Source: Gemmatimonadota bacterium (lineage in GTDB: Bacteria > Gemmatimonadota > Gemmatimonadetes > Gemmatimonadales > GWC2-71-9). From it: 64,000 bases of DNA. This document shows positions 22,350-44,095 of the stretch, piece after piece. Where the stretch lies: contig JBGQFX010000009.1 of assembly GCA_041497135.1 (NCBI GenBank), positions 128 through 64,127 of the forward strand, read 5' to 3'. The notes under the pieces are model-generated. The model searched no databases. It saw only the letters and a program-made list of their open reading frames with translations, and was not told the origin of the DNA. The translations under genes and the position numbers were made by a program. Within the stretch, counting starts at the first letter, position 1. Every line of letters begins with the position of its first letter.

Positions 22350-23362
22350 TCGCCAGCGGCACCACATTCTGCATTGTGGTGCCCCTGACCGAGCGCCTCG
22401 ATCGCTTCCTGGCCGATCAGCTCGCGCTGTCCCGCACCCAAGCCGCACGCCTCATCGCCGACAAGCGCGTCAGCGCCGGCGGCGCCCCGTTGCGCGCCTC
22501 GGCCCAGCTCGAGCGGGGCGCCACCGTGACTGTCGAGTTCCCCCCCGACGCGCCACCGCGCACCTACAGTCCCAACACGAGCGAGCTCCGATTCGTGTAC
22601 GAGGACGAGCACCTGGCCGTGCTCGACAAACCGGCCGGGCTGGTCGTGCACCCCGGCCCGGGACATTGGGACGACTCGCTGGTCAACGCGCTCGTAGGGC
22701 GGGGCACGCCGCTCGCGCCCGGGGCCCCCGAAGGCCGCCCGGGCATCGTGCACCGGCTCGATCGTGACACCTCCGGGCTCCTGATCGTGGCGAAATCCGA
22801 TCTGGCACACCGTCGCCTGGCTCGCGCAATCGAGCGGCGTGAGATCCGCCGTGTGTATGCCTGCCTCGCGTGGGGTCACTTCGCCAAGAGCCCGGTCGAC
22901 ATCGAGGCGCCGATCGCCCGGCACACAGAGGATCGCAAGCGCATGACGGTGCGGGCGGGCGGTCGCCACGCGGTTACGCACGTCACGGTCATCGCCCGCT
23001 TCGCTTTGGTGGACCTGCTGCGCGTGCAGCTGGGCACCGGGCGCACACATCAGATCCGCGTCCATCTGGCCCACGTTGGTCACCCGGTGGTCGGCGATCG
23101 CGCGTACGCCTTCGGCGGCAGTCGGCGTGTGACGCCGTCCGACCGCCAGGCGGCCGAGCGGCTCGAAGCGCTGGCGCCGCGCCAGCTGCTGCACGCCGCC
23201 GAGCTCTCCTTCACGCATCCGGTGAGCGGCGCCCCGATCCAGCTGCGCTCGGAGTGGCCCCCGGATCTCCTGCCGGCGCTGGCTGAAGCGGCCGGCGACG
23301 CGAAATTGCTTGCTGAACGCAACCCCTTGCAGTATCTTGGTTTCGCTGCTTCGGATGGCTGA
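22346..23362 (+). CDS. rluD: RluA/RluD family pseudouridine synthase with S4 domain
   Basis: RLDRFLA S4 domain, KPAGLVVHP, HRLDRDTSG, TGRTHQIRVH. Confidence 0.9.
   Translation: MIASGTTFCIVVPLTERLDRFLADQLALSRTQAARLIADKRVSAGGAPLRASAQLERGATVTVEFPPDAPPRTYSPNTSELRFVYEDEHLAVLDKPAGLVVHPGPGHWDDSLVNALVGRGTPLAPGAPEGRPGIVHRLDRDTSGLLIVAKSDLAHRRLARAIERREIRRVYACLAWGHFAKSPVDIEAPIARHTEDRKRMTVRAGGRHAVTHVTVIARFALVDLLRVQLGTGRTHQIRVHLAHVGHPVVGDRAYAFGGSRRVTPSDRQAAERLEALAPRQLLHAAELSFTHPVSGAPIQLRSEWPPDLLPALAEAAGDAKLLAERNPLQYLGFAASDG
23310..23338 (+). promoter_or_regulatory. Internal sigma70-type promoter for the che/mgl cluster, inside the 3' end of rluD
   Basis: TTGCTG(23310-15)-17 bp-TATCTT(23333-38) in an AT-richer patch, 16 nt before the cheW ATG. 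Confidence 0.5.
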
Positions 23363-23798
23363 TGCGACGGTAGTTCGGCTCCTGGTGTTCCGGGTGGGCC
23401 CGCTCGCCTGCGCTGCCCATGCGGAGGTCGTGCGGGAGATTTTGCCACGGCTGCCGGCGATTCGCATTCCCGGGGCGCCGCAGGTCGTCGCCGGGCTGGT
23501 GAATGTGCGCGGCAGTCTGGTGACCGTCGTGGAAGGATGGCGCGCGCTGCAGCAACCGTCGGGCGCGGCGGAGGGTGGCACCACCGTGTTGCTGGAGGTC
23601 GGGGCCGAACGCCGCGCGCTCGGGTTCACGGTGGATGAAGTGCTGGACTTGTTAGCGATTCCGGACGACCAGCTGGAGCAGCGCCAGGCGCTGCCGGGTC
23701 TCGATCCCAAGCTGGTACGGGCGGTCGGTCGCCGCGGTGGGCAGGTGTTCGTGGTCCTCGATACCGAGGCTTTGCTGGCCCCCATTCTGACTTCCTAG
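23355..23798 (+). CDS. cheW: CheW-like coupling protein 1
   Basis: LLVFRVG...VREI...IPGAP..VAGLVNVRG...VLDTEALL. Confidence 0.88.
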   Translation: MADATVVRLLVFRVGPLACAAHAEVVREILPRLPAIRIPGAPQVVAGLVNVRGSLVTVVEGWRALQQPSGAAEGGTTVLLEVGAERRALGFTVDEVLDLLAIPDDQLEQRQALPGLDPKLVRAVGRRGGQVFVVLDTEALLAPILTS

Positions 23799-23807
23799 GG
23801 AGGGTCT

Positions 23808-24170
23808 GTGAGCCACTCTGTTCTCGTCTGCGACGATGCCATCTTCATGCGGACGATGATCAGCGACATCCTGGCGCAAGCGGGCTTCGAGATAGTCGGC
23901 GAGGCCGAGACGGGCGCGCAGGCCGTGGAGAAATACAAGCAGTTGAAGCCGGACCTGGTGACGATGGACATCGTGATGCCCGACATGGGCGGCATCGATG
24001 CCGTACGGGAGATCGTCAAGAACGATCCCGACGCCAAGATCCTGATGTGCAGCGCCATGGGGCAACAGGCCCTCGTGGTCGAGGCCATCCAGGCCGGGGC
24101 CAAGGACTTCGTCGTCAAGCCGTTCCAGCCGTCCCGGGTGCTGGAAGCCGTGCAACGCGTGCTCGGCTGA
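23808..24170 (+). CDS. cheY: Chemotaxis response regulator CheY, Bacillus/Thermotoga type
   Basis: DDAIFMR...LKPDLVTMDIVMP...CSAMGQQ...KPF; GGAGG RBS. Confidence 0.95.
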   Translation: MSHSVLVCDDAIFMRTMISDILAQAGFEIVGEAETGAQAVEKYKQLKPDLVTMDIVMPDMGGIDAVREIVKNDPDAKILMCSAMGQQALVVEAIQAGAKDFVVKPFQPSRVLEAVQRVLG

Positions 24171-24171
24171 C

Positions 24172-26073
24172 ATGGACCTGTCGCAGTACGCCGAGTTGTT
24201 CCTGGCCGAGAGCCGGGAACACTTGAGCGCCTGCAACCACTTGTTGCTGCAGTGGGAGCGTACACCCACGAGCCCCGAGCCGGTGGGGGGCATTTTCCGC
24301 GCGGTGCATACGGTGAAGGGGATGGCGGCCACGATGGGCTACGCCCGGGTGGCGGACCTCGCTCACCGGATGGAGAACCTGCTCGACCGGCTGCGGCGCA
24401 GCGGCAAGCCGCCCACGGGTGAGCTGCTCCAGCTGTTGTTCCGCGCTACCGATCTCCTGGAAAAGACCATCGATCTCGCCGCGACGGGGCGCGAGCGGGA
24501 CGCCGACGTGTCCGGTCTTGGCACCGAGCTGGATGCGGCGGCCAAGCGCGCCGGCGGCACGCCGGCGGGTCGGGGTGCCGGCAAGTCGGCTCCGGCCGTG
24601 GTCCCGGCGCCGCCTCCGCCGGTAGACGAAGCGGGATTGGAGGGGGGGCGGCTGGTCTCGGTCGTGCTGCGCGCGGAGGCCCCGCTCAAGGGCGGGCGGG
24701 CCCTGATCGTCTTGCGTCGCGCTCAGAGTCTCGGCACGGTCACCCACTTGTCGCCGCCCGCCGCCGCGTTCGAATCGGATGAGTTCGAGGGCCGGTTGTC
24801 GCTGCGGCTCGACAGCCGCGCGACGCCGGAGGAAATCGAGCGGCAGCTCGCGCTGGCGGGGGACGTGGAACGGGTGACCGTTGCCGGCTTCGACGCGGTC
24901 GGCGCCAAGGGCGACGCCACGACCACCGAGCGCAGCCGGCACATCCGTGTCGATCTGAAGCGGTTGGACGCGCTGATGGATCTGATCGGCGAGCTGGTCA
25001 CGGCACGCGGCCGGCTGAACGAGCTGGCGGCGGCGCGGCGGGACCCGGCGGTGGACGACGTGGCCATCCAGGTCTCCCGCCTCACGGGTGATCTCCAGTC
25101 AGAGATCATTCAGGCGCGCATGACGCCGGTGTGGCAGGTGTTTGATCGGTACCCCCGGCTGGTGCGCGACCTGGCGCAGCAGCTCGAGAAGCAGGTCGCT
25201 CTGCGCGTGGAGGGGAAGGAGATCGAGCTCGACCGGGCGATCCTGGACGAAATGGGCGATCCGCTGGTGCATCTGCTGCGCAACGCGGTGGATCACGGCA
25301 TCGAATCGCCGGCCGAGCGCAAACGCCATGGCAAGCGGCCCGAAGGGGAGATCGTGCTCGCCGCCGTGCGGGAGCGCGCCAGCGTCGCCATCAGCATCGC
25401 CGACGACGGACGCGGCATCGACCGCGAGAAGATTCTCGAGAAGGCCAAGCGCGATGGACTGGTCGACGCGCATCTGGAAGCGCTGAGCGACGACCAGCTG
25501 CTGCGGGTCATTGCCCGGCCCGGATTCTCCACCGCCCAGGCCGTCACCAGCGTCTCGGGGCGCGGCGTGGGCATTGACGTGGCGATGACGAAGATCCGCG
25601 CCCTGGGCGGAACGATCGAGATCCAGACCGAACTCGGTCGCGGCACGACCTTCGTGCTGCGGCTGCCGGTGACGCTGGCGATCGTGCGCGCCTTGATCGC
25701 CACGGTCGGGGGCGAGCGGTACGCCCTGCCGCTCACCTATGTGTCGGAAACGGTGGAGTTCGGCGCGGTCCCGATCACGACGATCGAGGGTCGCGAGGCG
25801 ATGGTGCTGCGCGACCGGGTGGTACCGCTGGTGCATTTGCGCGACCTGCTCGGCGCGCACGGCGGCGGCGCGCCGTCGCCGCGTCGGCCGGTAGTCGTGC
25901 TGCAGATGGGCGAACGGCGGACCGGCGTAGTGGTGGACGGGATGCTGGGCCAGCAGGAAATCGTGGTGAAGGGATTTGATGCTCCACAGGGGATGCTCCC
26001 GGTGTTCAGTGGAGCGACCATCATGGGCGACGGCATACCGGCGTTGATTCTGGACGCCGGCGGGCTCGTCTAA
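24172..26073 (+). CDS. cheA: Chemotaxis histidine kinase CheA (Hpt, P2, dimerisation, HATPase, P5)
   Basis: FRAVHTVKG, HLLRNAVDHG, DDGRG, GFST, SGRGVG, LPVTLAI. Confidence 0.97.
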   Translation: MDLSQYAELFLAESREHLSACNHLLLQWERTPTSPEPVGGIFRAVHTVKGMAATMGYARVADLAHRMENLLDRLRRSGKPPTGELLQLLFRATDLLEKTIDLAATGRERDADVSGLGTELDAAAKRAGGTPAGRGAGKSAPAVVPAPPPPVDEAGLEGGRLVSVVLRAEAPLKGGRALIVLRRAQSLGTVTHLSPPAAAFESDEFEGRLSLRLDSRATPEEIERQLALAGDVERVTVAGFDAVGAKGDATTTERSRHIRVDLKRLDALMDLIGELVTARGRLNELAAARRDPAVDDVAIQVSRLTGDLQSEIIQARMTPVWQVFDRYPRLVRDLAQQLEKQVALRVEGKEIELDRAILDEMGDPLVHLLRNAVDHGIESPAERKRHGKRPEGEIVLAAVRERASVAISIADDGRGIDREKILEKAKRDGLVDAHLEALSDDQLLRVIARPGFSTAQAVTSVSGRGVGIDVAMTKIRALGGTIEIQTELGRGTTFVLRLPVTLAIVRALIATVGGERYALPLTYVSETVEFGAVPITTIEGREAMVLRDRVVPLVHLRDLLGAHGGGAPSPRRPVVVLQMGERRTGVVVDGMLGQQEIVVKGFDAPQGMLPVFSGATIMGDGIPALILDAGGLV

Positions 26074-26082
26074 GGGGGTGGC

Positions 26083-26700
26083 ATGGAGGACGTCCGCGAT
26101 CTGAAAGAGCTGCAGATCGACGCGCTGCGCGAGGTCGCCAACATCGGCGCCGGGCACGCGGCGACCGCGCTGTCCCAGATGACCAACCGCCGCATCATGA
26201 TCAGCGTGCCGCAGATCAACATCGCGCGGCTCGAAGAAGTGGCGGAGCTGCTGGGTGATCCCCAGGCGGTGGTGGTGGCGGTGCTGATGCACATGCTGGG
26301 GGACCTGACGGGCCGCACGCTGCTGCTCTTTCCGGAAAAAGTGGGGCAGCGGTTGTGCGACATGCTGTTGCGTCGCGCGTCCGGTGCGACGACGGCCTTC
26401 GGCGCGCTGGAGCAGTCGGCGCTCAAGGAGGCGGGGAATATCCTGTCCGGGGCCTACATGAACGCCCTGTCGGACTTCATGGGGATGCTGCTGTTGCCGT
26501 CGGTGCCGAGTCTGGTGATCGACCTGTCGGCGGCGGTGCTCACCACTACGTATCTCAATTTCGGACACGACCGCGACTTCGTGTTCTGCGTCGAAACCGA
26601 ATTCCGCATCGACGCCGAGGAGGAGCTGCGCGGGCACTTCCTGCTGCTTCCCGACCTGGCCTCCCTCAAGGCGATCTTCGACGCGATCCGCGTGACCTGA
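26083..26700 (+). CDS. cheC: CheY-P phosphatase CheC
   Basis: Two active-site motifs, DALREVANIG and SALKEAGNI. Confidence 0.93.
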   Translation: MEDVRDLKELQIDALREVANIGAGHAATALSQMTNRRIMISVPQINIARLEEVAELLGDPQAVVVAVLMHMLGDLTGRTLLLFPEKVGQRLCDMLLRRASGATTAFGALEQSALKEAGNILSGAYMNALSDFMGMLLLPSVPSLVIDLSAAVLTTTYLNFGHDRDFVFCVETEFRIDAEEELRGHFLLLPDLASLKAIFDAIRVT

Positions 26701-26703
26701 CCT

Positions 26704-29397
26704 GTGTCGGTGCCCGCGCTGTCGGATCGCGACCTCGCCGTCCTCCGATCCTTCGCCCGCCGGATCGATCCCTCGGACGCCGGGGCCCACAACAACCTCG
26801 GCGTTTTGTACTATCAGAAAGGGATGATCTCGGAGGCGATCGCGGAATTCTCGCGCGCCTTGGAGCTCGACCCCAAGATGCAGGTCGCGCAGCGCAACCT
26901 CGAGATCGCCTTCCACAACACCGGCTACTATGACCGGCGCGTGTCGGAGCTGCAGGAGCGGCTGCGCCAATCGCCGGACGATCGCGAATCCCGCCTCGAG
27001 CTGGGCCGGGCCTTTGCCGCGCTGGGCCAGTTTGACGAGGCGGTGGCTGAATTCGAGCAGATCCTCGCCCATCACCCCCGCGACGTCGCCGCCGTGATCC
27101 AGCTCGGTCTGGCGGAGAAGGCGCGCGGCCGTCTCGAAATCGCGGCCGACTGGTTCGAGCAGGCCCAGTCGCTCGATGCCACCTCGAGTGTCGTGCAGTT
27201 CTACCTCGGTGAGGTGCTGTACAATCGCGGGCTGAACGAAGCGGCCCTGGGTGCCTTGCAGCGCGCCGTACAGCTGAATCCCGACAACGCCAACGCCCAC
27301 TACCTGATGGCGTTCGTGTTGGGCGACATGGGGCGGCACCAGGAAGCGCGCGGCGCCTCCAAGCGCGCCATCGAGCTCAACCCGCCGCTGGCGCGCGCGC
27401 AGGCGAATCTGTCGATCGAGCGGCTCAGTACCGACCGGCGCAGCCAGCCGTACCTCGTGCGCGAGGCGCTGGAGATGGAGGTCGTGGAGGGCCGCGAGCT
27501 CGCCCACCACAACCTCGGACTCGCGTTCCGGCAAAAGGGCTACTACGTCGAGGCGTTGCGCGAATACCGGCTGGCCCTGGAGCGGGGGGAAGACCACCGC
27601 CTCGTGCACCAGGCCATGGCCGAAGTGCACCTGTTGCGGCGCGACTTCGGCCCGGCACTGGAGCTGTACGAGACGCTGCTCCAAGAGGTCCCCGACTCGC
27701 CCAAGCTGTGGAACGAGCGCGGCGTGGTACTGCACCAGGCGGGGCGGGTGGATGAAGCGCTGGCCTCGTATCGCCGCGCGGTGGAGCACGACCCCAAGTA
27801 CGCCCTGGCCCACAATAATACCGGCGTCGCCCTGGCCCATCAGGGCAGCACCGACGAGGCCGTGGAGGCGTTCCGCACCGCGCTGCAATCCCAGCCGACG
27901 TTCGCGGCGGCGCGCCTGAACCTGGCGCTGCTGCTGTTCCACATCCGGCGGCTGCAGCTGGCACTCGAAGCCTATCGCCAGGTGCTGGGCGACGATTCAC
28001 GCAACGCCTCGGCCTGGAACGGCGTCGGGCTCGTCCTGGTGGAGCTGAAGCGCTTCGCCGACGCGCGCAACGCCTTCGCACGCGCGGTCGAAGGGGACCC
28101 GCAGCACGCGGGCGCGCACTACAACCTCAGCTTCGCCCTGTCGAACCTCGGCGACTTCGACGGCGCCCTGCGCGCGACCAAGCGGGCGCTCGAGCTCGAT
28201 CCCTACTACGTCTCCCAGAAGTTCGCGCTGACGATCGATCTGCAGTACGAAGAAGCCACGATCGGCGTCGCTCCGGAGATCTCGGCCGACGTGACGACCG
28301 ACTCGCTCGGGACCGAATTCTCGTTCGATCAGCGGCTGCTGGACAACATCTTCCAGGAGCTGGCGCCGCCCGAGCCGATCGGCCTGGCCGGGGCGCGGGG
28401 GCGCGACGACCAGCTGTCCCTGGCGCGCGACTACGTGAGCAAGGGACTGTTCGATCTCGCGGCGGCGGAGGCGATCCGCGCCATGCAACGCGGCGCCGAT
28501 CGCGCGGAGGCCACGACCCTGGTCGGCGACCTCTACGCCAAACGCGGCCTCCACGGCGAGGCGCTGGAGCGCTACCAGGAGGTCCGCACCCTCGACCCGG
28601 ACCGGACCGATGCCCGGCTGGGAGAGATCAAGGCGTTGCTCGCGCTGAATCGTTCGGCCGAGGCGATCGAGCCGGCCGAAGAGCTGCTGACGCTGGCGCC
28701 CAACGATGTGGAGGCGCTGCTCGTGGTCGCCAAGGCGCGGGCGGCGCAGGGCGACGCGGCCGCCGCCCTCACCGCCCTGCAGCAGGCGCAGAGTCGCGCC
28801 CCGGCGCGCGCCGATCTCCACAAGCTCCAGGGCGACGTGCTCGTGAAGGTGGGCGACCGGGGCGGCGCGCTCGCCGCCTACCGCGGGGCGCTGGAGCTGG
28901 ACCAGGGCTTCGTGGCGGTCTGGGTCGATCTTGGACGCATTCATGAGCAGCGCGAGGAATGGGCGGATGCCCTGCGGGCCTACGAACGGGCGTTGCACGA
29001 GCTGCCGACCTACCACGAAGCGACCATGGCGCTCGCGGACCTGCAACGCCGGCTGGGCCGGCTGCCCCCCGCCATCGACCGGCTCGCGAACCTGCTGGAG
29101 GACGATCCGTACGACCTGGATGCGCTCATTCTGCTGGGCCGCGCGTTGCTCGAGGACAAGCGGCCGGAGGCCGCGCTCGAGGCGTTCCGCCGTGTGCTGA
29201 AATTCGATCCCGCCCACGTGGCCGCCCTGTTCAATGAAGGTGTGGTCCTGGCTCAGCTGCGCCGCTATCGCGAAGCCGTGCACCGGTGGGAGCAGGTGAC
29301 CCGCCTGGACCCGTCCGGACCGTTCGCGCAGCGCGCCCGCATGCACGCGCGCACGGCCCTCGACCTGCAGCACATCTTCACTTCGGACGCGGCCTGA
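26704..29397 (+). CDS. Large cytoplasmic TPR-repeat protein (897 aa)
   Basis: Two long arrays of TPRs (e.g. AHNNLGV...A..LDP) separated by an acidic non-TPR linker; no signal peptide. Confidence 0.92.
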   Translation: MSVPALSDRDLAVLRSFARRIDPSDAGAHNNLGVLYYQKGMISEAIAEFSRALELDPKMQVAQRNLEIAFHNTGYYDRRVSELQERLRQSPDDRESRLELGRAFAALGQFDEAVAEFEQILAHHPRDVAAVIQLGLAEKARGRLEIAADWFEQAQSLDATSSVVQFYLGEVLYNRGLNEAALGALQRAVQLNPDNANAHYLMAFVLGDMGRHQEARGASKRAIELNPPLARAQANLSIERLSTDRRSQPYLVREALEMEVVEGRELAHHNLGLAFRQKGYYVEALREYRLALERGEDHRLVHQAMAEVHLLRRDFGPALELYETLLQEVPDSPKLWNERGVVLHQAGRVDEALASYRRAVEHDPKYALAHNNTGVALAHQGSTDEAVEAFRTALQSQPTFAAARLNLALLLFHIRRLQLALEAYRQVLGDDSRNASAWNGVGLVLVELKRFADARNAFARAVEGDPQHAGAHYNLSFALSNLGDFDGALRATKRALELDPYYVSQKFALTIDLQYEEATIGVAPEISADVTTDSLGTEFSFDQRLLDNIFQELAPPEPIGLAGARGRDDQLSLARDYVSKGLFDLAAAEAIRAMQRGADRAEATTLVGDLYAKRGLHGEALERYQEVRTLDPDRTDARLGEIKALLALNRSAEAIEPAEELLTLAPNDVEALLVVAKARAAQGDAAAALTALQQAQSRAPARADLHKLQGDVLVKVGDRGGALAAYRGALELDQGFVAVWVDLGRIHEQREEWADALRAYERALHELPTYHEATMALADLQRRLGRLPPAIDRLANLLEDDPYDLDALILLGRALLEDKRPEAALEAFRRVLKFDPAHVAALFNEGVVLAQLRRYREAVHRWEQVTRLDPSGPFAQRARMHARTALDLQHIFTSDAA

Positions 29398-29401
29398 CCG
29401 A

Positions 29402-30544
29402 ATGGCGATCGAAGGCCCGCTGCGGGAGCTCGGCATCCACGATGTCTTCCAGCTGCTGGATCTCAGCCGGAAGACCGGGGTGCTGCGCGTCACCTCCGAG
29501 CTCCGGCACAACGCCGGCACGATCTACTTCGACGACGGGGCGGTGATCTACGCGGAGATCCGCAGCAACCCCCACCCGTTGGGCGGTCTGCTGCTGCGCA
29601 GCGGCAAGATCACCGAAGCCGATCTCGAGCACGCGCGCGACATGCAGACGCGCCAGGGCGACCCGCGGCGACTCGGCGAGATTCTCGTTTCGCTCGGAAT
29701 CATCACGCCCCGCGAGCTGCAACGCCACGTGCGGTTTCAGATCGAGGAAGTGGTGTTCGAAGTCATCGGTTGGAACGAAGGCTACTTCTCGTTCACCGAA
29801 GGGCCGCTCACCGACCTGACTGCCGAAGCCACGGTCCGGATATCGACCGAAGCCCTCCTCATGGAAGGGGCGCGTCGCATCGACGAGTGGGCCCGGATCG
29901 AGAAACGTGTCCCGCACCTGGGCGTCGTGCCGACCTACGCCCCATCGATGCAAGGTGGAGACCTGGATCTGCTCCCGCCCGAGTGGGAAGTGCTGGCGCT
30001 GATCGACGGGGACCGCGATCTCCGGGCGATTGCGGCGACGCTGGCACGCTCCGATTTCGACATCGCCAAGACGCTTTTCGGTCTGGAGAGCGCCGGTCTC
30101 ATCACCCTGGTCGACCCCGGGACCGCGCCGCGCGGCCGCAGCAGCGCGCCCGATGCCGCCGTGCTGGTCGCGGAAGCCGAGGAGGCGTTCGGTCGCCACG
30201 ACCTGGACCGGGCCCGTGCCGCGGCGGAACGGGCCGCGGTCGTGCAACCGCACGATCCCGCCGTGCACTTGCTGCTGGGTCGTGTGCACCTGGAGGCCGG
30301 CCGGCCTGGCGAAGCGGTGGACGAGCTGCGCCGCGCGCTGCGGCTCGACGCCGGGGGGCTTTCCGCCTACCGCCTGCAGGGGTTCGCGCTGGTGCAGCTC
30401 GGGCGGTTCGCCGAAGCGGTCGAGCAATGGGACCAGTGGGAGCGCCTGGCCGTGAACGAGGAGCAGGAGACTCCCTATCGCGACGACGTGCTGTCGGCCA
30501 AGGCCGCCGCCCGGTTCCTGGGCGGAGCGCGTGCCCATGTCTGA
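29402..30544 (+). CDS. DUF4388 protein with MshEN-like motifs and C-terminal TPRs
   Basis: MAIEGPLRELGIHDVFQLL...KTGVL, RLGEILVSLGII, W.EGYFSF, LLMEGARRIDEW. Confidence 0.85.
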   Translation: MAIEGPLRELGIHDVFQLLDLSRKTGVLRVTSELRHNAGTIYFDDGAVIYAEIRSNPHPLGGLLLRSGKITEADLEHARDMQTRQGDPRRLGEILVSLGIITPRELQRHVRFQIEEVVFEVIGWNEGYFSFTEGPLTDLTAEATVRISTEALLMEGARRIDEWARIEKRVPHLGVVPTYAPSMQGGDLDLLPPEWEVLALIDGDRDLRAIAATLARSDFDIAKTLFGLESAGLITLVDPGTAPRGRSSAPDAAVLVAEAEEAFGRHDLDRARAAAERAAVVQPHDPAVHLLLGRVHLEAGRPGEAVDELRRALRLDAGGLSAYRLQGFALVQLGRFAEAVEQWDQWERLAVNEEQETPYRDDVLSAKAAARFLGGARAHV

Positions 30545-32202: not shown

Positions 32203-32802
32203 GTGTCCCTCGTCAACTTTACGACCCGCGAGATCACCTGCAAGATCGTCTACTACGGTCCGGGGCGCTCCGGGAAGACGACGAACCTGCACTACATCTA
32301 CGGCCGCGTGCCCGAATCCCGCCGCGGCCGTATGGTGTCGCTCGCCACCCAGACGGACCGGACGCTGTTCTTCGACTTCCTGCCCATCGACCTGGGGCAG
32401 ATCTCGGGGTTCACCACCCGATTCCAGCTCTACACCGTGCCGGGGCAGGTCTATTACAACGCCACGCGCCGGCTGGTTCTGCAGGGGGCCGACGGCGTGG
32501 TATTCGTGGCGGACAGCCAGGCGCGACAGCTGGACGAGAACTTGGAGAGCCTGCAAAACCTGCAGGCGAACCTGCTCGAGCACGGCATCGACATACGCGC
32601 GCTGCCGGTCGTGATGCAGTACAACAAGCAGGACCTGCCCCGCGAGCTGATCCTCCAGCTGCTCGAGCTGGACGACGCCCTCAACTTCCGCGGCGTGCCG
32701 AGCTTCCCGGCCGATGCGCTGCACGGCAACGGGGTGTTCGAGACGCTGAAGGCGATCACCGAGCTGGTGCTGCGGCGCCTGGCCCAGGGGGCGCCGGCGT
32801 GA
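32203..32802 (+). CDS. mglA: MglA-family small Ras-like GTPase
   Basis: [24 protein letters not shown] (intrinsic Arg finger), TVPGQ, VFVADSQ, NKQD. Confidence 0.95.
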
Positions 32803-34754
32803 CTTCCGCGCTGAACCCGAAGTTCACCTTCGACACCTTCGTGGTGGGCGCCGCCAACCGGCTGGCCGTGACGGCGGCGCGCACTGTGGCGGAAAGCCCC
32901 GGCTCCGCCTACAACCCGCTCTTCATATACAGCGGCTCCGGGCTCGGCAAGACGCACTTGCTCATGGCGATCGGCGCCAATGCCAAGCGGTTGGCCCCCG
33001 CGCTCAACGTCGAATACCTGACCCTGGACGAGTACGTCGAAGCGTTCCACGCCGCCATCGCGGCCGGTCAGGGCGACGCGTTCCGCCGTCGGTTCCAGAC
33101 GGTCGACGTCCTGCTGGTCGACGACGTGCAGTTCCTCGCCAACCGCCGGGAGATGCAGACCGAGTTGTTGCGGCTGTCGGAGGCGTTGCAGATCGCCGGC
33201 CGCCAGATCGTGCTCACGAGTGATCGGCCCCCCGCCGAGATCGAGGCGCTGGACGAGCGGCTGATTTCCCGCTTCTCGGGCGGCCTCGTCGTGGATATCG
33301 GGGCCCCGGACTACGAGACGCGGGTCGCCATCCTGCGCCGCAAGGCCGAGGAGCGCGGCGCCGAATTCCCGCCCGGCGTGCTCGAGACGGTGGCGGCCGC
33401 GGAATTCACCAACGTGCGCGAGCTGATGGGCGTGCTCAACCGGCTGGTCGCGTACCAGGCCGTGAATGAGACGCCGCTCACGGCGGAGGCGGCGCAGGGG
33501 CTCCTGGGTCTCGAGCCGCGCCCGAGCGCCGGCGCGGCTGCGACGTCCGCCGCCGAGCGGATCGGCCACCCGGACGAGTTCGCCGCGTTTCTCACCGACG
33601 TGACGGTGACGGTCGGCAAGGCGGTCGAAGCATGGCGGGCGCGGATCGCGGAGGCGATCCTGCGCTGGGAAGGCGAAGGCTATCGGACGCGGCGGCTCGA
33701 GTCGCTGCTTGAGCAGGAAACCCCGCTCGCCCCGGACGAGGAGATCGCCACCTACGCCCGCGACGTCGAGCGGCTGCGGGCGCTCGAAGCCGAAGTGTCA
33801 CAGTTCGATCCGCAAGCGGCGGGGCAGAGCGTGTTCCGCGACCCGGAGCGGCTTGCCGAGGCCGAGGAGGCGGCGGCGCGAGTGCGCGCCGGTGCGGCGC
33901 CGCCGCCCGCGCCCTCCGCCGCGATGCCGTTCAGCACGTTCGCCGTCGGCGCGTCGAACCAGCTCGCCGTGAACGTGGCCCGCGAAGTGCTGGAGGAGCC
34001 CGGCCGCCGCTACAACCCGCTGGTGCTGCTCGGCAAGAGCGGCGTCGGCAAATCGCACCTGCTCAACGCGCTGGGGCTCGAGCTGGCACAACAGCCGGGC
34101 GCCATCGTGGCGTGCCTGTCGACGCAGGCGTTCATCGACGAGCTGATCGTCGCGATCGACGGCAACCGGATGGAATGGTGGCGCGCCCGCTACCGCCGCG
34201 CCACGGCGCTGCTGCTGGACGACATCCACCTGCTGGGCGGCAAGGACCGGACGCAGGAAGAGCTGTTCAATCTGTTCAACCTGTTCCAGGACCTGGAACG
34301 ACAGCTGGTGTTCACCGCGCCGGCCCACCCCAAGACGCTGCGGGGGATCGAGCAGCGCATCGCCTCCCGGCTGGAGGGCGGCCTGGTGGTGGAGCTGGTC
34401 GAGCCGGATCGCGACGTGCGTCGTACGGTCATCCGGCGCGCACTCGGAGCGCAGGATGTGCCCGAGGATCCGGTGCTGATCGACTATCTCGCCGATCGCC
34501 CGGCCGATTCGGTGCGCAGCCTGATGGGAGTGCTGCAGCGGGTGGTGAGCGCGGCGGCGGCGCAGGACGTGCCCGTGAGTGCCGGACTCGCGCGCGAGGT
34601 GCTCGAGGGCGGCACAGCCGCCGAGCGGCGCCGCACCGTCGGATTCCGCACATCGGGGATCGTGGTGTCGAGCGCGGGGGGCGTGCGCAGCCGCGAGAAG
34701 ATCGTGTGGGATTGGGCTTCGCCCGCGGACCGCCTGATCGAGGAGCTGCGCTAG
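32799..34754 (+). CDS. Tandem DnaA/Hda-type AAA+ protein (two ATPase domains, no DnaA domain I or IV), 651 aa
   Basis: Domain 1: [51 protein letters not shown]. Domain 2: [43 protein letters not shown]. Start is the GTG overlapping the mglA stop. Confidence 0.9.
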
Positions 34755-36373
34755 TGGCGATCAAGGGCTCGCTGCGGGAAGCCTCCCTGCCGGACGTGCT
34801 CCAGCTGCTGGCGCTCGGGCAGAAAACCGGCTGTCTCTCGATCGCCGATCGCTCGAACTTCGGCTACATCTTTTTCGATCGCGGCCGCATCTGCTACGCC
34901 TCGATCGTCAACCGCCGCGACCGCCTCGGCGACATCCTTGTCAAGCACGAGAAGATCAGCCAGGAGCAGCTCGACGCCGCCGTGGCGCGCCAGGCGCGCG
35001 AGCGCGACAAGAAACTGGGCGAGATCATGGTGGACCAGGGGGCGATCTCGCAGCCCGAGTTGGAGCGCTACATCCGGGTGCAGATCGAAGAGGCCGTGTA
35101 TTTCCTGTTCACCTGGACCCAGGGTACGTTCAACTTCGAAGCCGACGTCCGCGCGGAGCGCCAGGACTTCCTCGTGTCGATCAACCCCGAGTCGCTCCTG
35201 CTCGAAGGGGCGCGCCGGGTGGACGAGTGGAGCCTGATCGAGAAAAAGGTGCCGTCGTTCGACATCATCTTCATCGTCGATCACGAGCGACTCGATATCA
35301 GCGAGGCCACGCTCACCGAAACGCAGCAGCGCATCCTGCCATTGCTCGACGGCTCCCGCGACGTCAACCAGATCATCGAAGACTCCGGGCTGGGAGAATT
35401 CGAGATCGGCAAGGCCCTGTACGGGCTGATCACCGCTGGCTTCCTGCATCGCGCGGGACGCACCACCTCGGCGGAGCAGCAGAAAATGAGCGACGCCCGC
35501 GTCGAGGAGCACCGCAACCTCGGCGTGGCGTTCTATAAGACCGGAATGCTGGACGAGGCGGCCCGGGAGTTCCGGCGCGTCGCCGAGCTGCGCGCCGGCG
35601 ATCCCAACGCGATGTTTTTCCTCGGCCTCGTGGCGCTCAAGCAGGCGCGCTGGCGCGAAGCGATGGAATCGCTGCGGTCCGCGGCGGAGAAAGGCGGCAG
35701 TCGCCCTGCGGTGCTGCACAATCTGGGATTTGCCTACGAGCAGCTGGGGCGGCTGGACGAAGCCGAAGCGTCCTGCGCCGAGGCGGCGTCGCGGGCGCGG
35801 ACCGATCCGCGCATCTATCTGGGGTGGGGCATCGTCGCGCTGAAACGCGGCGACCACACCGGCGCCGGTGGGCGGCTGGACCGGGCCAAGGAGCTGTACG
35901 GCTCGCAGCAGCCGCCGGCGGTGTGGTATTGGGCGCGGACGCTGGCGGCGGGGTTGGGCAGCGACTTCGAGTCCGCCGAGCATATCGGCGCGGCCGGGAT
36001 CGCGGCCTATCCGCAGAGCGCGGTATTGCGCAACAACCTCGCCGTGCTGCGCGAGCTGAGCGGCGATCTGCGCGGCGCCGAGGATCTGGTGCGGGTGGCG
36101 ATCCAGGACGAGCCGTCGCAGCCGCAGCTCTCCAAGAACCTCGGCGACCTCGCGTATCGCGCCTCACGCTATGACGAGGCGTGGACCGCGTATCGCCGGG
36201 CGGTGGAGCTCGCCCCCGACCTGGGGGACGACGTCTACTTCAAGCTGGGCAACATCGCCTACAAGCGAAACGACCGCGAGCTCGCCGCCCAGCTCTGGCG
36301 GCGGGCGCTCGAGCTGAACCCGAGTCACGAATTGGCGAAAACGAACCTGGAGACCTTGAGCACGCTGCAGTGA
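34754..36373 (+). CDS. Second DUF4388 protein with MshEN-like motifs and TPRs
   Basis: AIKGSLREASLPDVLQLL...KTG, RLGDILV/KLGEIMV, LLLEGARRVDEW, C-terminal TPRs. Confidence 0.87.
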   Translation: MAIKGSLREASLPDVLQLLALGQKTGCLSIADRSNFGYIFFDRGRICYASIVNRRDRLGDILVKHEKISQEQLDAAVARQARERDKKLGEIMVDQGAISQPELERYIRVQIEEAVYFLFTWTQGTFNFEADVRAERQDFLVSINPESLLLEGARRVDEWSLIEKKVPSFDIIFIVDHERLDISEATLTETQQRILPLLDGSRDVNQIIEDSGLGEFEIGKALYGLITAGFLHRAGRTTSAEQQKMSDARVEEHRNLGVAFYKTGMLDEAAREFRRVAELRAGDPNAMFFLGLVALKQARWREAMESLRSAAEKGGSRPAVLHNLGFAYEQLGRLDEAEASCAEAASRARTDPRIYLGWGIVALKRGDHTGAGGRLDRAKELYGSQQPPAVWYWARTLAAGLGSDFESAEHIGAAGIAAYPQSAVLRNNLAVLRELSGDLRGAEDLVRVAIQDEPSQPQLSKNLGDLAYRASRYDEAWTAYRRAVELAPDLGDDVYFKLGNIAYKRNDRELAAQLWRRALELNPSHELAKTNLETLSTLQ

Positions 36374-37203
36374 GCGAATCGGCCGAGGAGCAGGCGTTCC
36401 GGGCCCTGACCGATAAGATCACCCGGGCGCGCGGCATCTGCTGCGACGCGTACAAGGACCGGTGCCTGAAGCGGCGCATCGCGGTGCGCATGCGGGCCCG
36501 CGGCGTGCACAGCTTCGCCGACTACAGCCGGGTGCTGGACGGCGATGCGCACGAGTACGACCTGCTGCTCGACGCGCTCACCATCAACGTCACCAAGTTC
36601 TTCCGCAACCCGGAAACCTGGGCGGCGCTGGCGCCGCATCTGTTGGAGCGCTGGCGGGCGAGCGCCGGCGCGTTCGTCGCCTGGTCCGCGGGCTGCGCGT
36701 CGGGGGAAGAGCCCTACACCGTGGCCATCGCGCTGGCCGAAGTGGCCCGCGGCTCGCTCACGTCCGATCGGCTGCCACGCGCGCGCGTCATCGCGACCGA
36801 CATCGATCGCGTCAGCCTTGAGCGCGCCCAGGCCGCGCGCTATCCGGCCACCGCCTATTCCGAGATGCCCGTCGAGCTGGCGCGCCGCTGGCTCGAGCCG
36901 ACCGCGCCGGACGGCACGCGCGCCCCGGTCGCCGCGATTCGCGCCCTGGTCGATGTGCGGCGCCTCGACCTCACGCGCGAGCGGTCCCCGGAGACCGCCG
37001 ATGGACTCGACCTGATCGTGTGCCGAAACGTGGTGATCTACTTCGACCGGGAGACCCAGGAGCGGCTGTTCCAGACCTTCGCCCAGGCGCTGAAGCCCGC
37101 CGGCGTGCTGCTCCTGGGCAAGGTCGAAACCCTGCTGGGCCCCGCGCGGGAGCGGCTGCGGCTGCTCGACGCGCGCGAGCGCATCTACCAGAGGCCCGCG
37201 TGA
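36370..37203 (+). CDS. cheR: Protein-glutamate O-methyltransferase CheR
   Basis: TINVTKFFRN, WSAGCASGEEPY, ATDID, CRNVVIYFD. Confidence 0.95.
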   Translation: MSESAEEQAFRALTDKITRARGICCDAYKDRCLKRRIAVRMRARGVHSFADYSRVLDGDAHEYDLLLDALTINVTKFFRNPETWAALAPHLLERWRASAGAFVAWSAGCASGEEPYTVAIALAEVARGSLTSDRLPRARVIATDIDRVSLERAQAARYPATAYSEMPVELARRWLEPTAPDGTRAPVAAIRALVDVRRLDLTRERSPETADGLDLIVCRNVVIYFDRETQERLFQTFAQALKPAGVLLLGKVETLLGPARERLRLLDARERIYQRPA

Positions 37204-37685
37204 CCGCGCGCGAGCAGTTCGTCCGCGTGGCCGAGTGGGCCGTGGGGCGTGAGGGCGTGATCGTCTCCCTGGGGCTCGGCTCCTGTGTCGCGATCATGCT
37301 GCACGATCCACGCGCATGCATCGGCGGCATGGCGCATGTGCTGCTGCCCTCGAAGAGCCTGTCCCACGACCAGGACAAGCCGGCGAAGTTTCCCGAGACC
37401 GCCGTGCCGTTTCTGGTCCAGCGCCTCGTCGCCGCTGGCGCGGACCGGCATCGGCTGGTGGCGAAGCTCGCGGGGGGCGCCAGCATGTTCGCGCAGCTCA
37501 TGACGCCGGGCGCGGTACAGATGGGCGAGCGCAACATCGCGGCGTCCCGATCGGTGCTGCGCGAAGCCGCGATCCCCATCATCGGCGAATCCGTGGGCGG
37601 CGAGCGAGGCCGCTCGGTACGGTTCCACGTCGCCGACGGGCACGTGGAGAGCCACACGGTGGGCGGTGATGAAGTCGTCTTCTAA
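37200..37685 (+). CDS. cheD: Chemoreceptor glutamine deamidase CheD
   Basis: [29 protein letters not shown]. Confidence 0.95.
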
Positions 37686-38766
37686 GGGCCGGCCCACGGT
37701 CCTCGTGGTGGACGACAGCGCGCTGATGCGACGTGTGCTCAGCGACGTGCTGAGCGGCGAGCGGGGCGAGGGACCGTTCCGCGTCGTCGCCACCGCGCGA
37801 GACGGCTTCGACGCGGTGCAGAAGGTGCATCAGCTGCAGCCCGACGTGGTCACGATGGATCTCGAGATGCCGGAGCTCGACGGGCTCGGCGCCATCGGGT
37901 ACATCATGTCGGAAACGCCGCGCCCGATCGTGGTCGTGAGCGCGCACGCGGGACCCGGAACGGAGGCGGCGATCCGGGCGCTCGAGCTGGGCGCGGTCGA
38001 GATCGTCGCCAAGCCGGTCGACGCGACGCGGGAGGCCCTGGTCAGCATGGGCCCGCGGCTGATTGCGGCCGTGCACGCGGCGCTGGCGGCCGACGTGTCG
38101 CGCCTGCCGGTGCTCGCCCGGCCGCCGACGCCCGCGCCGCGCGCCCCGGCGCTCGAGTTGGGCCGGCGGGCGCACGTCGCCGTCGCCATCGCGGCGTCGA
38201 CGGGCGGGCCGCGGGCGCTGGCGGAAGTGCTGCCGCGGCTGCGGGTGGGCCTACGGGCCGCGGTGCTGGTGGTGCAACACATGCCGCCGCGGTTTACGCG
38301 CAGTCTGGCCGAGCGCCTGTCCAGCATGAGCGCGCTGCGGGTGGTGGAAGCGGACGCGGGCGCTCCGCTGGTGGCCGATACGGCGTACGTCGCTCCGGGC
38401 GATTATCATATGCGAGTGATCCCGGCGGAGGACGGTCCCGTGATTGCCCTGGACCAGGGGCCGCCCGTGTGGGGCGTGCGTCCGGCCGCGGACCCGCTGT
38501 TTCGCTCCGTGGCGCTCGTGTTCGGGCCGCGCGCTGTGGGGGTCGTGCTGACGGGCATGGGACGAGATGGAGCGGAAGGGTTGCGGGCGATCCATGACGC
38601 CGGCGGCGGGGGGTTCGCACAGGACAAGGACTCGGCGGTGATCGCAGGGATGCCCACGGCGGCGTTTCAGGCTGGTGGCGTGGATGCGGTGGTGCCGCTG
38701 GCGCAGATGGCCGATCGCATCGCCGCCGAGCTGGTGCGCCGCGGCGGGATGGGAGGCCGCGCGTGA
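37669..38766 (+). CDS. cheB: Methylesterase response regulator CheB
   Basis: REC domain plus ASTGGP, QHMP and LTGMGRDG catalytic motifs. Confidence 0.96.
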
Positions 38767-39170
38767 GCATGGGATTCCTGTTGGTGCGTGCCGAACGGCG
38801 TCCGTACGGGCTGCCGTTGGACTGTGTCGTCGAGGTGACGGATCTGACCGAAGTGCTGGAGGTGCCGCGGGCCGAGGTGGCGGTGCGGGGGTTGACGCCG
38901 CTGCGCGGGCGCTTGGTGCCGTTGGTGCATCTGGCGGCGTTTCTTGGCCGGCGCGCACCGCCAGCCGAGCGGGGTCGCGCCGCCGTACTGGTGCAGCTGG
39001 GGGGGCGCTTCGTGGCCTTCGAGGTGGACGACGCGGACGAGGTGGTGCGAGAGGCCCCGCTGCCGGTACCCGACGGCGCCTCGCTGCCGTGGGCGGCGGG
39101 CGTGGCGCTGCGTGGTGACGGCCTGGTGCCGATTCTGGATCTCGAGGCGCTGGGGGACCGTATCGGATGA
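38763..39170 (+). CDS. cheW: CheW-like protein 2 (short, divergent)
   Basis: YGLPL..VVEV...[17 protein letters not shown]...PILDL. Confidence 0.85.
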
Positions 39171-39646
39171 CGACGACCACCACGGGCGACGACGTCCAGC
39201 TGGTCACGTTCCGCGTGGCCGGTCAGGACTTCGCGTTCAACATCTTCCAGGTCGAGCGGATTCTCCGCTACGAATCGCCGGCGCCGCTGCCCAAAGCCCC
39301 GGACTTCCTGGAAGGGGTGCTGCAGTACCAGGGTGGCCCGGTGCCGGTGATCGACCTGCGCAAGCGCCTCGGCGTCGAGGCGCCGCTCAAGGACGACACG
39401 CGTATCATCGTGCTGGACTGGGATGGCGGCAAGATCGGCTTCGTGGTGGATACGGTGACCGAAGTGCTGCAGATCGGCGCTGGGGACGTGATCCCGCCGC
39501 CGGCGATCGTCAAGGGGCTCGCCGCCGAGTACATCACCGGTCTCGTCGGCCGTGAGGCACGCACCATCATCGTGCTCAACACGGCGAAGCTGCTCGCATC
39601 GAAGGAGAAGTTGGCCCTCACCACGGCCCTCAAGGGGTCGACCTGA
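39167..39646 (+). CDS. cheW: CheW-like protein 3
   Basis: QLVTFRV, LPKAPDFLEGV, PVIDLRKRL, GFVVD.V.EV. Confidence 0.92.
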   Translation: MTTTTTGDDVQLVTFRVAGQDFAFNIFQVERILRYESPAPLPKAPDFLEGVLQYQGGPVPVIDLRKRLGVEAPLKDDTRIIVLDWDGGKIGFVVDTVTEVLQIGAGDVIPPPAIVKGLAAEYITGLVGREARTIIVLNTAKLLASKEKLALTTALKGST

Positions 39647-40512
39647 TGCGCGAATCTCCGATGACCGCCTTGCGCGTCGAGTACGACGCGATCGCGCAGC
39701 GCCTCGACAACGCCGGCACGCACGGGGAGCGGGATGCGGTCAAGCAGGAGATCATCTTCTTCTTCAAGCAGGTCGATACGCTGCTGGGTGAGGTGGGGCA
39801 GCTGAAGGAAGACATCCGGGTGCTGGTGGACAAGTACAAGCAGCTGCAGGCGGCATCGACCGCCGAAGCGGCCGCGCCGGAGTTCACGGGCATTCGTCCC
39901 GCCGTGAAGGCTGACCACATCGGGGCGTCGACCTTCATCGAGAAGGGATGGAGCCTGATCTCGCTCGGCGATCATGACGGGGCGATTCAGGCGCTGCAGA
40001 AGGCGTTGCAGCTCTCGCCGGGCGAAACCCAGGCGGAATCGCTGCTCGGCTGGGCGCAAATGCTGCACGGCGACTATGACGACGCGCTGTCCACGTTTCA
40101 GAAAGTCCTGATGAAAGAGCCCGCCAATTCGCTCGCCCGCATCAACGTCGGCTACATCTGCCTCAAGAAGCGCATCTTCGGCGAAGCGATCGAGCACTTA
40201 TCCAAGGCGATTCGCCTCGACAACGACAAGAAGGCGACGCTGTACGCGCATTTCTATCTCGGACTCGTGTATCTGAACCGCGAGATGTATGAAGACGCGC
40301 AGACGTTCTTCCAGAAGACCCTGAAACTCGGTCCCAACCTGATTGACGCCTATTACGAGCTCGGACGCGCCTTCTGGTTCGGCGGCGATCAGGAGCAGGC
40401 GCGTCGGTCGTGGGACGAGGGATTCAAGGCGAACAAGTTCAATCCCTGGGGCCGCAAGTGTCAGGAGACGCTGACGCTCGTGGCTCAGGGGGAGGCCCCC
40501 CCGCGTCCCTGA
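39646..40512 (+). CDS. Protein with N-terminal coiled coil and C-terminal TPRs
   Basis: Heptad-rich N-terminus (about aa 6-70) followed by about five TPRs; ATG overlaps the cheW3 stop. Confidence 0.88.
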   Translation: MRESPMTALRVEYDAIAQRLDNAGTHGERDAVKQEIIFFFKQVDTLLGEVGQLKEDIRVLVDKYKQLQAASTAEAAAPEFTGIRPAVKADHIGASTFIEKGWSLISLGDHDGAIQALQKALQLSPGETQAESLLGWAQMLHGDYDDALSTFQKVLMKEPANSLARINVGYICLKKRIFGEAIEHLSKAIRLDNDKKATLYAHFYLGLVYLNREMYEDAQTFFQKTLKLGPNLIDAYYELGRAFWFGGDQEQARRSWDEGFKANKFNPWGRKCQETLTLVAQGEAPPRP

Positions 40513-44092: not shown

Positions 44093-44095
44093 CCC

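Follow-up and report, generated by a model that had tools for sequence, protein, structure and literature searches.

Polarity circuits in which a chemosensory pathway acts on a small GTPase are known mainly from Myxococcus, where the parts are scattered over the genome and the links between them were found genetically. The window analysed here, a stretch of 64,000 nucleotides (nt) from a Gemmatimonadota bacterium (GenBank assembly GCA_041497135.1, contig JBGQFX010000009.1, positions 128 to 64,127 of the forward strand), raises the question of whether such a circuit can be encoded as a single unit in another phylum. Between positions 23355 and 40512 of the window, on the plus strand, lie 18 co-oriented genes in which a complete set of chemotaxis (che) genes surrounds eight non-che genes, with one further non-che gene at the 3' end. 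As judged from gene order across the phylum, the Gemmatimonadota inherit this cluster vertically, as a single signalling unit. The joining of a chemosensory pathway to an MglA switch is a known kind of coupling; the form of the cluster, and the family of tandem ATPases that it encodes, are new.

The Gemmatimonadota are abundant in soil, and their behaviour has scarcely been studied. The presumed circuit is here entire in one conserved cluster: adaptation enzymes, kinase, CheY, phosphatase, three Roadblock proteins, MglA, effectors built of tetratricopeptide repeats (TPRs), and sensors of the cyclic di-GMP (c-di-GMP) type. For most of the sampled members of the phylum the cluster is the only chemosensory system, and no flagellar gene was seen in them. 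It suggests an undescribed way to steer a non-flagellar machine at the cell pole, and brings to light a new family of proteins, DnaA-derived ATPases of tandem form whose tail is predicted to dock on TPRs. The wiring is directly testable, because variants without che genes, without Roadblock genes, or reduced to a minimal pair of genes exist in nature.

Gene content of the cluster

Gene starts were inferred by choosing the start codon closest to the preceding stop, and on this basis the 17 junctions span -17 to +9 nt. An earlier interpretation made from the letters alone (the sequence-only reading) had counted 17 genes; Pfam and NCBIfam scans give 18, which is also what its own gene list sums to. 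These scans upheld the gene order and every domain named in it, and the inferred starts give overlapping or short junctions, as it had described.

The cluster opens with four che genes. The first, cheW1 (23355-23798), encodes a coupling protein that is the sole copy of its kind in the genome (Pfam CheW, 82 bits), and is followed by cheY (23808-24170), encoding a single-domain response regulator (Response_reg, 108 bits; best NCBIfam model CheY_Halo, below its cut-off). The kinase gene cheA (24172-26073) has the full P1-P5 architecture in Pfam (Hpt, P2, dimerisation, HATPase and CheW-like domains) and gives the only PF02895 match in the genome, while cheC (26083-26700) encodes a putative phosphatase of phosphorylated CheY (CheY-P; Pfam CheC, 84.6 bits; NCBIfam CheC_Thtogales, 169 bits against a cut-off of 250). 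The remaining che genes lie on the far side of the non-che block. They are cheR (36370-37203; methyltransferase, Pfam CheR 149 bits plus CheR_N), cheD (37200-37685; deamidase, Pfam CheD 96 bits, best NCBIfam model CheD_Thtga, below its cut-off), cheB (37669-38766; methylesterase with a receiver, CheB_methylest 210 bits plus Response_reg), cheW2 (38763-39170; CheW, 79 bits) and cheW3 (39167-39646; CheW, 111 bits). With CheA P1-P5, CheW, CheY, CheR, CheB, CheC and CheD all above their Pfam cut-offs, the set is of the CheC/CheD type, as had been proposed. No gene for a methyl-accepting chemotaxis protein (MCP) lies inside the cluster.

The seams between the che genes and the core that they enclose are as tight as the other junctions, with 3 nt between cheC and the first core gene and an overlap of 4 nt (-4) between the last core gene and cheR. 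The core begins with TPR897 (26704-29397), a cytoplasmic protein of 897 aa that matches many TPR families, with repeats throughout, and whose place in the gene order is unchanged in each of the 11 complete loci. It is followed by PATANa (29402-30544), with a PATAN (DUF4388) domain, an MshEN-type insert at residues 59-113 and C-terminal TPRs; by TPR-Roadblock (30537-31379), which matches TPR families and, just above the cut-off of 23 bits, Robl_LC7 (24.7 bits); by the Roadblock/LC7 protein Robl2 (31376-31726; Robl_LC7, 41.2 bits); and by an MglB-like Roadblock protein (31723-32196). Next come an mglA paralogue (32203-32802); DnaA2x (32799-34754), whose 651 aa contain two Bac_DnaA stretches (331 bits); and PATANb (34754-36373), which combines a PATAN domain and a four-helix MshEN-type insert (residues 57-118) with a TPR superhelix of about 300 residues. 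The ninth non-che gene, TPR288 (39646-40512), closes the cluster and encodes 288 aa with a helical N-terminus and TPRs matching TPR families.

Conservation across the Gemmatimonadota

The distribution of the cluster was followed in 151 Gemmatimonadota genomes, each at least 85% complete and including two unpublished ones (G055 and G095), with the family-specific linker as the marker for DnaA2x and the dimerisation domain as that for CheA. The linker is present in 101 of the 151 genomes. Among the sampled families, numbered f1 to f12, it was found in 70/72 genomes of f1, 22/31 of f2, 2/2 of f3, 1/1 of f4, 1/1 of f5 and 2/2 of f8, and in 2/16 of f7, where both matches are weak; it was not found in the sampled genomes of f6, f9, f10, f11 and f12. 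In 82 of the 101 linker-positive genomes CheA is encoded 6.8-9.7 kb (median 8.7 kb) upstream of the linker, on the same contig and strand. A further 11, among them the f7 genome G114, have CheA solely on another contig, and in nine of these 11 the linker lies at most 8.3 kb from the start of its contig; the other eight have no CheA match. Leaving out G055 and G095, both of which are linker-positive with CheA adjacent, the linker is found in 99 of 149 genomes and CheA is adjacent in 80 of 99.

A locus search was also made with the Walker A motif as its pattern, and is uninformative on the presence of the family elsewhere, since 72 of the 80 loci listed are ordinary DnaA of other phyla. The eight public tandem-ATPase loci among those listed (L014-L021) all match the order in the window as far as their contigs reach, four being cut by contig ends. 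All 18 genes are present in L015, L019 and L020, the last of which lies on a complete chromosome (CP070666.1). In the loci fetched from f1, f2, f3, f4, f5 and f8 the order is retained, with the che, core and che segments interleaved as in the window, and losses are small: the queries used failed to detect cheW2 and cheW3 in G010, and TPR288 in G027 and G047. Over the 11 complete loci, CheY is the most conserved protein (78-94% identical to that of the window), followed by MglA (70-88%), and the others have medians of 47-71%. The arrangement is conserved far beyond chance: the order recurs where the proteins are only 40-60% identical. The proposal that the che genes and the mgl/PATAN/DnaA block travel together thus holds across the phylum, in the form of one collinear cluster with the same order in six families and CheA close upstream in most carriers.

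A search of the full-text literature turned up nothing that describes the cluster or the tandem ATPase, although table S2 of PMC4316618, an MglA-neighbourhood table outside that search, may list this neighbourhood for Gemmatimonas. The available part of the same work describes the neighbourhoods of group-1 MglA as highly variable, with PATAN genes only occasional, and notes group-1 members in Gemmatimonadetes.

Loss of the chemosensory genes

Five loci (L106-L110) were fetched from the eight CheA-negative genomes, and their core is intact. Three of them, in G110, G091 and G147, keep TPR897 through PATANb as well as TPR288 and have no che genes at all. In G037 the genes from cheR through cheW3 are lost and cheA and cheC are truncated, and in G068 only fragments of cheB, cheR, cheW3 and cheC are left. 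TPR288 is kept in all five. MCPs were not found in three of these genomes, a sub-threshold remnant occurs in a fourth, and the fifth has two. In the G068 locus (L109, contig C86), short in-frame remnants of cheW3, cheB, cheR and cheC flank the intact core at 4542-5158 and 14829-15140, and to judge from these fragments this is a chemosensory system caught in the act of decaying.

Since the che genes are lost, truncated or decaying at five loci where the nine-gene core is intact, the nine non-che genes read as an autonomous core, and the che pathway as an input layer upon it and not an inseparable part. The sequence-only reading had described a single system of che genes and MglA; the collinearity and co-conservation stand, but the che genes are not indispensable, eight of the 101 carriers having no CheA match.

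The core itself can also be reduced. In the genus g41 (L094-L096), which is flagellated and has three CheA, the three Roadblock genes, cheR and cheW2 are missing, and MglA, DnaA2x and PATANb are kept; such a variant would leave MglA without an adjacent GTPase-activating protein (GAP). In the f7 genome G114 only DnaA2x and PATANb remain, their start and stop still overlapping, and they stand at the same chromosomal site, behind divIVA-pnp-ileS. Every variant seen has retained this DnaA2x-PATANb pair.

The tandem ATPase and its predicted partner

DnaA2x consists of two AAA+ modules corresponding to DnaA domain III (residues ~1-235 and 380-603), joined by a helical linker (260-364) and followed by a conserved C-terminal tail (~628-651). 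Domains I and IV of DnaA are missing, because the match to TIGR00362 (DnaA) covers only positions 101-335 of the 437 in the profile. The first half matches the solved B. subtilis DnaA (PDB 8bv3) with an E-value of 1.8e-61, against 1e-6 for Hda in the PDB, and the two halves are 44% (half 1) and 35% (half 2) identical to domain III of the host's own DnaA. In an alignment of 26 members, the Walker A lysine and the Walker B aspartate are invariant in both halves, E633 and K634 of the tail are invariant, and W639 is nearly so; the window protein has the box VII arginine and the sensor-2 arginine in each half. The position aligned with what we take to be a residue of B. subtilis DnaA that contacts single-stranded DNA is polar in DnaA2x, which is a lead only and not evidence.

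Two known identities were considered and rejected. The protein is not a true DnaA, as it holds only domain III, twice, without domain I or IV; the true DnaA of the host is encoded on contig C103. Nor is it Hda, since it scores 185.9 bits against a cut-off of 194.8 with the Hda model TIGR03420, and is a tandem of 651 aa where Hda is a single module of about 230 residues. Many relatives among the 120 best clusters listed are 76-100% identical, and full-length relatives of about 650 aa extend down to 33%. Every member of the family with a named organism is from the Gemmatimonadota, and the nearest Atlas clusters of ~600-660 aa are commonest there. On these comparisons DnaA2x represents a new, phylum-specific family of tandem DnaA-derived ATPases, found only in Gemmatimonadota.

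The AlphaFold (AF2) model of DnaA2x (mean predicted local distance difference test score, pLDDT, 86; predicted template modelling score 0.47) shows the two AAA+ modules, the linker domain, a disordered stretch at 606-633 and a terminal helix. That of PATANb (pLDDT 85) places four helices at 57-118 within a beta-rich N-terminal domain, followed by the TPR superhelix; a fold search with it returned TPR superhelices only, such as the peptide-binding TPR of O-GlcNAc transferase (OGT). Docking of the tail into a TPR domain was proposed first and then tested by complex prediction. Residues 237-651 of DnaA2x with PATANb gave interaction prediction scores from aligned errors (ipSAE) of 0.74, 0.72 and 0.73 in three runs made with own alignments, against 0.00 for the best of three controls; of 80 solved complexes 58 come up to this mark, and of 110 mismatched pairs 2 do. 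The runs agree on at least 69% of contacts, with a pLDDT of at least 82 for the partner, and the predicted interface lays the tail (628-651, including the invariant E633 and K634) in the TPR region of PATANb (residues 258-494). As a prediction, the models thus support docking of the DnaA2x tail in the TPR groove of PATANb (about 0.73 against 0.00).

Eight long relatives of DnaA2x were scanned for additional domains. A full MshEN stands before the tandem in two of them, a TPR region before a DnaA module in one, and a receiver after the tandem in one (P0196, P0204, P0246 and P0218 are the fused forms). They are hints only, because they come from clusters of one or two members.

The MglA paralogue, the Roadblock proteins and the PATAN proteins

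In the translation of the cluster mglA gene, G3 reads TVPGQ and the G2 threonine has an arginine as its neighbour, and these are the two features by which group-1 MglA proteins, with their intrinsic arginine, are recognised in the accessible part of PMC4316618. It aligns with the solved MglA of M. xanthus (5ymx) at 252 bits (phmmer, E 3e-74). A second MglA of 224 aa, which also bears the group-1 hallmarks, is closer to the M. xanthus protein (283 bits) and belongs to a canonical mglB-mglA pair on contig C42 (L112:7156-8328, minus strand), with its own Roadblock gene and beside recR and ybaB. Because this canonical pair stands elsewhere in the genome, the MglA of the cluster is a dedicated paralogue. 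About 25 extra residues precede the C-terminal segment of the second MglA.

The gene directly upstream of the cluster mglA had been called mglB. Its conserved position and weak similarity agree with that call, and its family scores do not reach their cut-offs (Robl_LC7, 20.5 bits against 23; Thermus MglB model, 31.9 against 200), so that it is described here as MglB-like and as the presumed GAP of the adjacent MglA.

PATANa and PATANb score 114.1 and 128.6 bits with the PATAN model PF14332, whose cut-off is 25. The label MshEN, which had been given to their inserts, is borne out by NF053729, a model of the MshE-related c-di-GMP-binding motif that both exceed (43.5 and 52.7 bits, respectively, against a cut-off of 38). 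Both carry TPRs, and no Response_reg match was found in either. MshEN domains are described, in the part of PMC5013675 available, as two tandem motifs of 24 residues, RLGxx(L/V/I)(L/V/I)xxG(L/V/I)(L/V/I)xxxxLxxxLxxQ, separated by a short spacer and forming a four-helix unit. The second motif fits this consensus in both proteins, the first differs from it at one or two positions, and both proteins are regarded as putative c-di-GMP sensors.

Flagella, pili and the possible output

The host genome (G000) amounts to 3.40 Mb in 116 contigs and is 94% complete, and the named relatives of its proteins are all from Gemmatimonadales or Gemmatimonadota. A whole-genome search with PF02895 found one CheA, that of the cluster. 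Four MCP genes were found, all on other contigs, and seven GGDEF genes. At this completeness, no FlhA, flagellin or FliM/N was found in the genome, nor a second copy of any che gene or a further PATAN gene. Contig C34 carries a pilB-pilT-pilC-pilS-pilR locus whose PilB has an MshEN domain. Near this locus (L113:12842-19912, minus strand) lies a gene for an SprA-like protein of 2356 aa, with a weak SprA_N match in one stretch (45.6 bits), and on contig C35 (L114:6892-9459) an 855-aa open reading frame (ORF) encodes a secretion ATPase resembling PilB, which has an MshEN domain and ends in a receiver.

FlhA is present in 39 of the 151 sampled genomes. It is missing in 77 of the 101 linker-positive genomes, of which 54 have one CheA, 15 have two and eight have none; 69 of the 77 thus retain a CheA. 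Among the 24 carriers with FlhA, ten have one CheA, eight have two and six have three. All four flagellated relatives examined have a further CheA in a different che cluster, which is 33-43% identical to the CheA of the window (30-33% for CheY, where detected) and in three of the four is encoded 19-57 kb from flhA on the same contig. A flagellar output cannot account for the cluster in most carriers.

Work on other bacteria offers precedents for a link between such proteins and pili. In Synechocystis, PATAN-REC regulators bind PilB1, according to the portion available of bioRxiv 10.1101/2021.06.11.447907, and SgmX of M. xanthus, with 14 TPRs, is presented in the available part of PMC11580455 as the MglA effector responsible for bringing PilB to the pole. 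By analogy with the latter, TPR897 is a candidate MglA effector or scaffold.

Proposed mechanism and alternatives

The preferred reading, held tentatively and at somewhat short of an even chance, is that the cluster encodes an MglA polarity module modulated by chemosensory signals and by c-di-GMP, whose output is not flagellar and is probably type IV pili. MCPs encoded elsewhere would signal to CheA and the CheW proteins, and these to the stand-alone CheY. CheY-P would in turn act on the layer formed by the PATAN, Roadblock and MglB-like proteins, a step proposed because regulators of the PatA type in cyanobacteria fuse PATAN to a receiver. The GTP state or the location of the MglA paralogue would then shift, and MglA-GTP, together with the SgmX-like long TPR protein and the PATAN proteins, would position or activate a polar machine that is not flagellar, type IV pili being the most plausible one. 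A second input, c-di-GMP, would enter through the MshEN-type inserts of both PATAN proteins. DnaA2x, tethered to PATANb by its C-terminal tail, might serve as an ATP-driven oligomerising scaffold or as a timer. Apart from the predicted contact between DnaA2x and PATANb, we infer all of the protein-protein steps, as well as the binding of c-di-GMP and the identity of the output.

Several observations weigh against this reading. The cluster itself contains no gene for pili, gliding or any other output. PilT scores above its cut-off in 146 of the 151 genomes, some of them from families that lack the cluster; this is compatible with pili as the output, but such co-occurrence does not discriminate between outputs. 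The flagellated G021 has the cluster's CheA as its only one, ten of the 24 FlhA-positive carriers have a single CheA, and the che module may drive flagella in carriers of this kind; moreover, all eight CheA-less carriers are FlhA-negative, which fits flagella as a former output. The first MshEN motif departs from consensus in both PATAN proteins, with a residue other than glycine at position 10 in PATANb, and a charged residue at position 21 and a spacer of 7 instead of 5 in PATANa. The docking of the DnaA2x tail is a prediction only, and the fused relatives may be artefacts of gene calling. To our knowledge, no DnaA-like ATPase takes part in a polarity system, and the role given to DnaA2x is a guess. 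Finally, a promoter and terminator scan of 21400-41000 found nothing above chance before cheW1 or inside the cluster.

The unusual ATPase is the starting point of the main rival explanation, control of the cell cycle, which is judged unlikely. DnaA2x would here co-oligomerise with DnaA, cap its oligomers, or act on replication or division, and the PATAN proteins with c-di-GMP, MglA and the che pathway would couple replication, or polar growth and division, to signals. Its identity to domain III of the host's own DnaA, its far better match to B. subtilis DnaA than to Hda, the invariant Walker residues of both halves and the box VII and sensor-2 arginines of the window protein agree with such a role, as do the retention of DnaA2x-PATANb in every variant and the place of the cluster between the divIVA block and the mraW-ftsI-mur cluster in f1 and f2, the f7 pair still standing by divIVA-ileS. 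That neighbourhood of ileS and the division cluster is, however, ancient synteny that need not reflect function. Without domain I or IV the protein has no known route to DnaA boxes or the helicase, the fusions of its relatives to MshEN, TPR and receiver domains resemble a signalling ATPase, and replication control is not known to involve a dedicated MglA, three Roadblock proteins or signals from a chemosensory pathway. More far-reaching, and likewise unlikely, is a further proposal: DnaA2x would be the first ATPase of the AAA+ initiator clade recruited as a cytoplasmic signalling polymer, forming DnaA-like, ATP-dependent assemblies tethered by their tails to a c-di-GMP-sensing PATAN-TPR protein, under the command of MglA and a chemosensory pathway, and marking the pole or engaging DnaA. 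If this were true, chemosensory and c-di-GMP signals would gate chromosome replication or polar growth in the Gemmatimonadota.

The two other alternatives concern the output and the integrity of the cluster. It is rather improbable that the machine controlled is another non-flagellar one of the surface or envelope, such as gliding, type IX secretion or c-di-GMP-controlled export of polysaccharide. MglA controls gliding too in Myxococcus, going by partial sources, and MshEN-type motifs regulate glycosyltransferases as well (available part of PMC5013675); the SprA-like gene adjoins the pil locus on contig C34, and PilT occurs in families without the cluster. No gene for such a machine is linked to the cluster, however, and the SprA_N match is weak. 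Very improbable is an ordinary flagellar chemotaxis operon of the F1 type with an unrelated insertion of MglA, PATAN and DnaA2x genes, the two parts being neighbours by history and working separately. In its favour, the gene set and the closest family models point to chemotaxis of the Thermotoga, archaeal and Bacillus type, the flagellated G021 has no CheA but that of the cluster, and che genes have been lost without loss of the core. Yet CheA is kept in 69 of the 77 carriers without FlhA, and CheY remains 78-94% identical over the 11 complete loci; che genes stand on either side of the core, with a gap of 3 nt at one seam and a junction of -4 nt at the other, this interleaved order is retained in six families, and flagellated relatives with at least two CheA have a second che cluster of a different class.

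Relation to known systems

The closest parallel to the proposed module is that of Myxococcus, formed by Frz, MglA, MglB, MglC, RomR-RomX and SgmX. Both would have a chemosensory pathway that switches a group-1 MglA, a Roadblock GAP (in the cluster, presumed and MglB-like) accompanied by one or more Roadblock paralogues, and a long TPR protein downstream of MglA. They differ in that the che set of the cluster is of the CheC/CheD type with a stand-alone CheY, that its MglA is a paralogue beside a separate canonical mglBA, and that the Myxococcus module has no counterpart of the two PATAN-MshEN-TPR proteins or of DnaA2x. Moreover, as far as the available part of PMC4316618 describes it, mglA is encoded apart from its signalling partners in Myxococcus, whereas here all are in one collinear cluster.

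In the cyanobacterial Tax and Pix systems with PatA-type PATAN-REC regulators, PATAN proteins are likewise encoded with che-like genes, and theirs contact PilB1 (bioRxiv 10.1101/2021.06.11.447907, part available). The PATAN domains of the cluster are instead fused to TPRs and an MshEN-type insert and not to a receiver, CheY is separate, and MglA, Roadblock proteins and DnaA2x are added. [quoted passage not shown]

On the chemosensory side, the gene set is the same as in F1-type chemotaxis of Thermotoga, archaea and Bacillus, and the best NCBIfam models are CheA_Halo, CheY_Halo, CheC_Thtogales and CheD_Thtga. All of these matches are below cut-off, however, the host has no flagellar markers that were found, no MCP is encoded in the cluster, and eight non-che genes stand in its middle and one at its end. 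The pathway is accordingly called F1-like, on the strength of the gene set and of sub-cut-off NCBIfam neighbours. Both halves of DnaA2x share with DnaA domain III and Hda the initiator-type AAA+ fold, Walker A and B, and the box VII and sensor-2 arginines, and the protein differs from them by its tandem form, the lack of domains I, II and IV, and the addition of the helical linker domain and the predicted TPR-docking tail. As for MshEN, the inserts resemble those of MshE and PilB in the pair of motifs, in the NF053729 scores above cut-off in both PATAN proteins and in the four helices of the PATANb model, and differ in lying inside PATAN instead of N-terminal to a secretion ATPase, and in the imperfect first motif of both.

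Chromosomal setting

The cluster is preceded by rluD (22346-23362, plus strand; Pfam PseudoU_synth_2), a pseudouridine synthase gene whose 3' end at 23362 overlaps the ATG of cheW1 by 8 nt, leaving zero intergenic space. This overlap and the upstream block recur in relatives. Because the cluster abuts and overlaps rluD, read-through from upstream is a candidate for its expression, and the transcription unit could extend from ileS through dksA-lspA-rluD into the cluster. One candidate promoter had been placed ahead of the cluster by the sequence-only reading, which the sequence does not bear out: there is no intergenic gap, and the single sigma-70-like match in 21400-41000 lies downstream of the cluster, at 40531-40559 before tRNA-Val (one found, 1.1 expected by chance).

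Genomes of f1 and f2 carry the cluster at a fixed chromosomal position, with yggS-divIVA-pnp-ileS-dksA-lspA-rluD on one side of the cluster and the gene for a secreted TPR protein and mraW-ftsI-murE on the other; the upstream side of this synteny is also retained in f4 and f8. The fixed position argues that inheritance of the cluster is vertical. A mobile element or a defence island was considered for the cluster and is ruled out on the same two grounds, the position and the mode of inheritance. In the window, the upstream block spans 15855-23362 and the division cluster, mraW-ftsI-murE-murF-mraY-murD-ftsW-murG-murC, spans 42814-55026. The order from yggS to rluD resembles what we take to be the block after the division cluster in Bacillus; here it stands upstream of the che/mgl cluster.

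The downstream boundary is marked by tRNA-Val (40770-40844, plus strand; ARAGORN). An ORF at 40764-42665 begins within this tRNA, so that the real gene must start later; it would be a secreted TPR protein of ~565 aa from about 40968, and this gene is conserved downstream of the cluster in relatives. It is followed by tRNA-Asp (42716-42791) before mraW. At the other end of the window, an ORF of 1364 aa on the minus strand (1421-5515) has no Pfam match at E <= 1e-5, and the neighbouring 5805-9770 encodes a hybrid histidine kinase of 1321 aa that combines a receiver with several domains of the PAS and GAF types.

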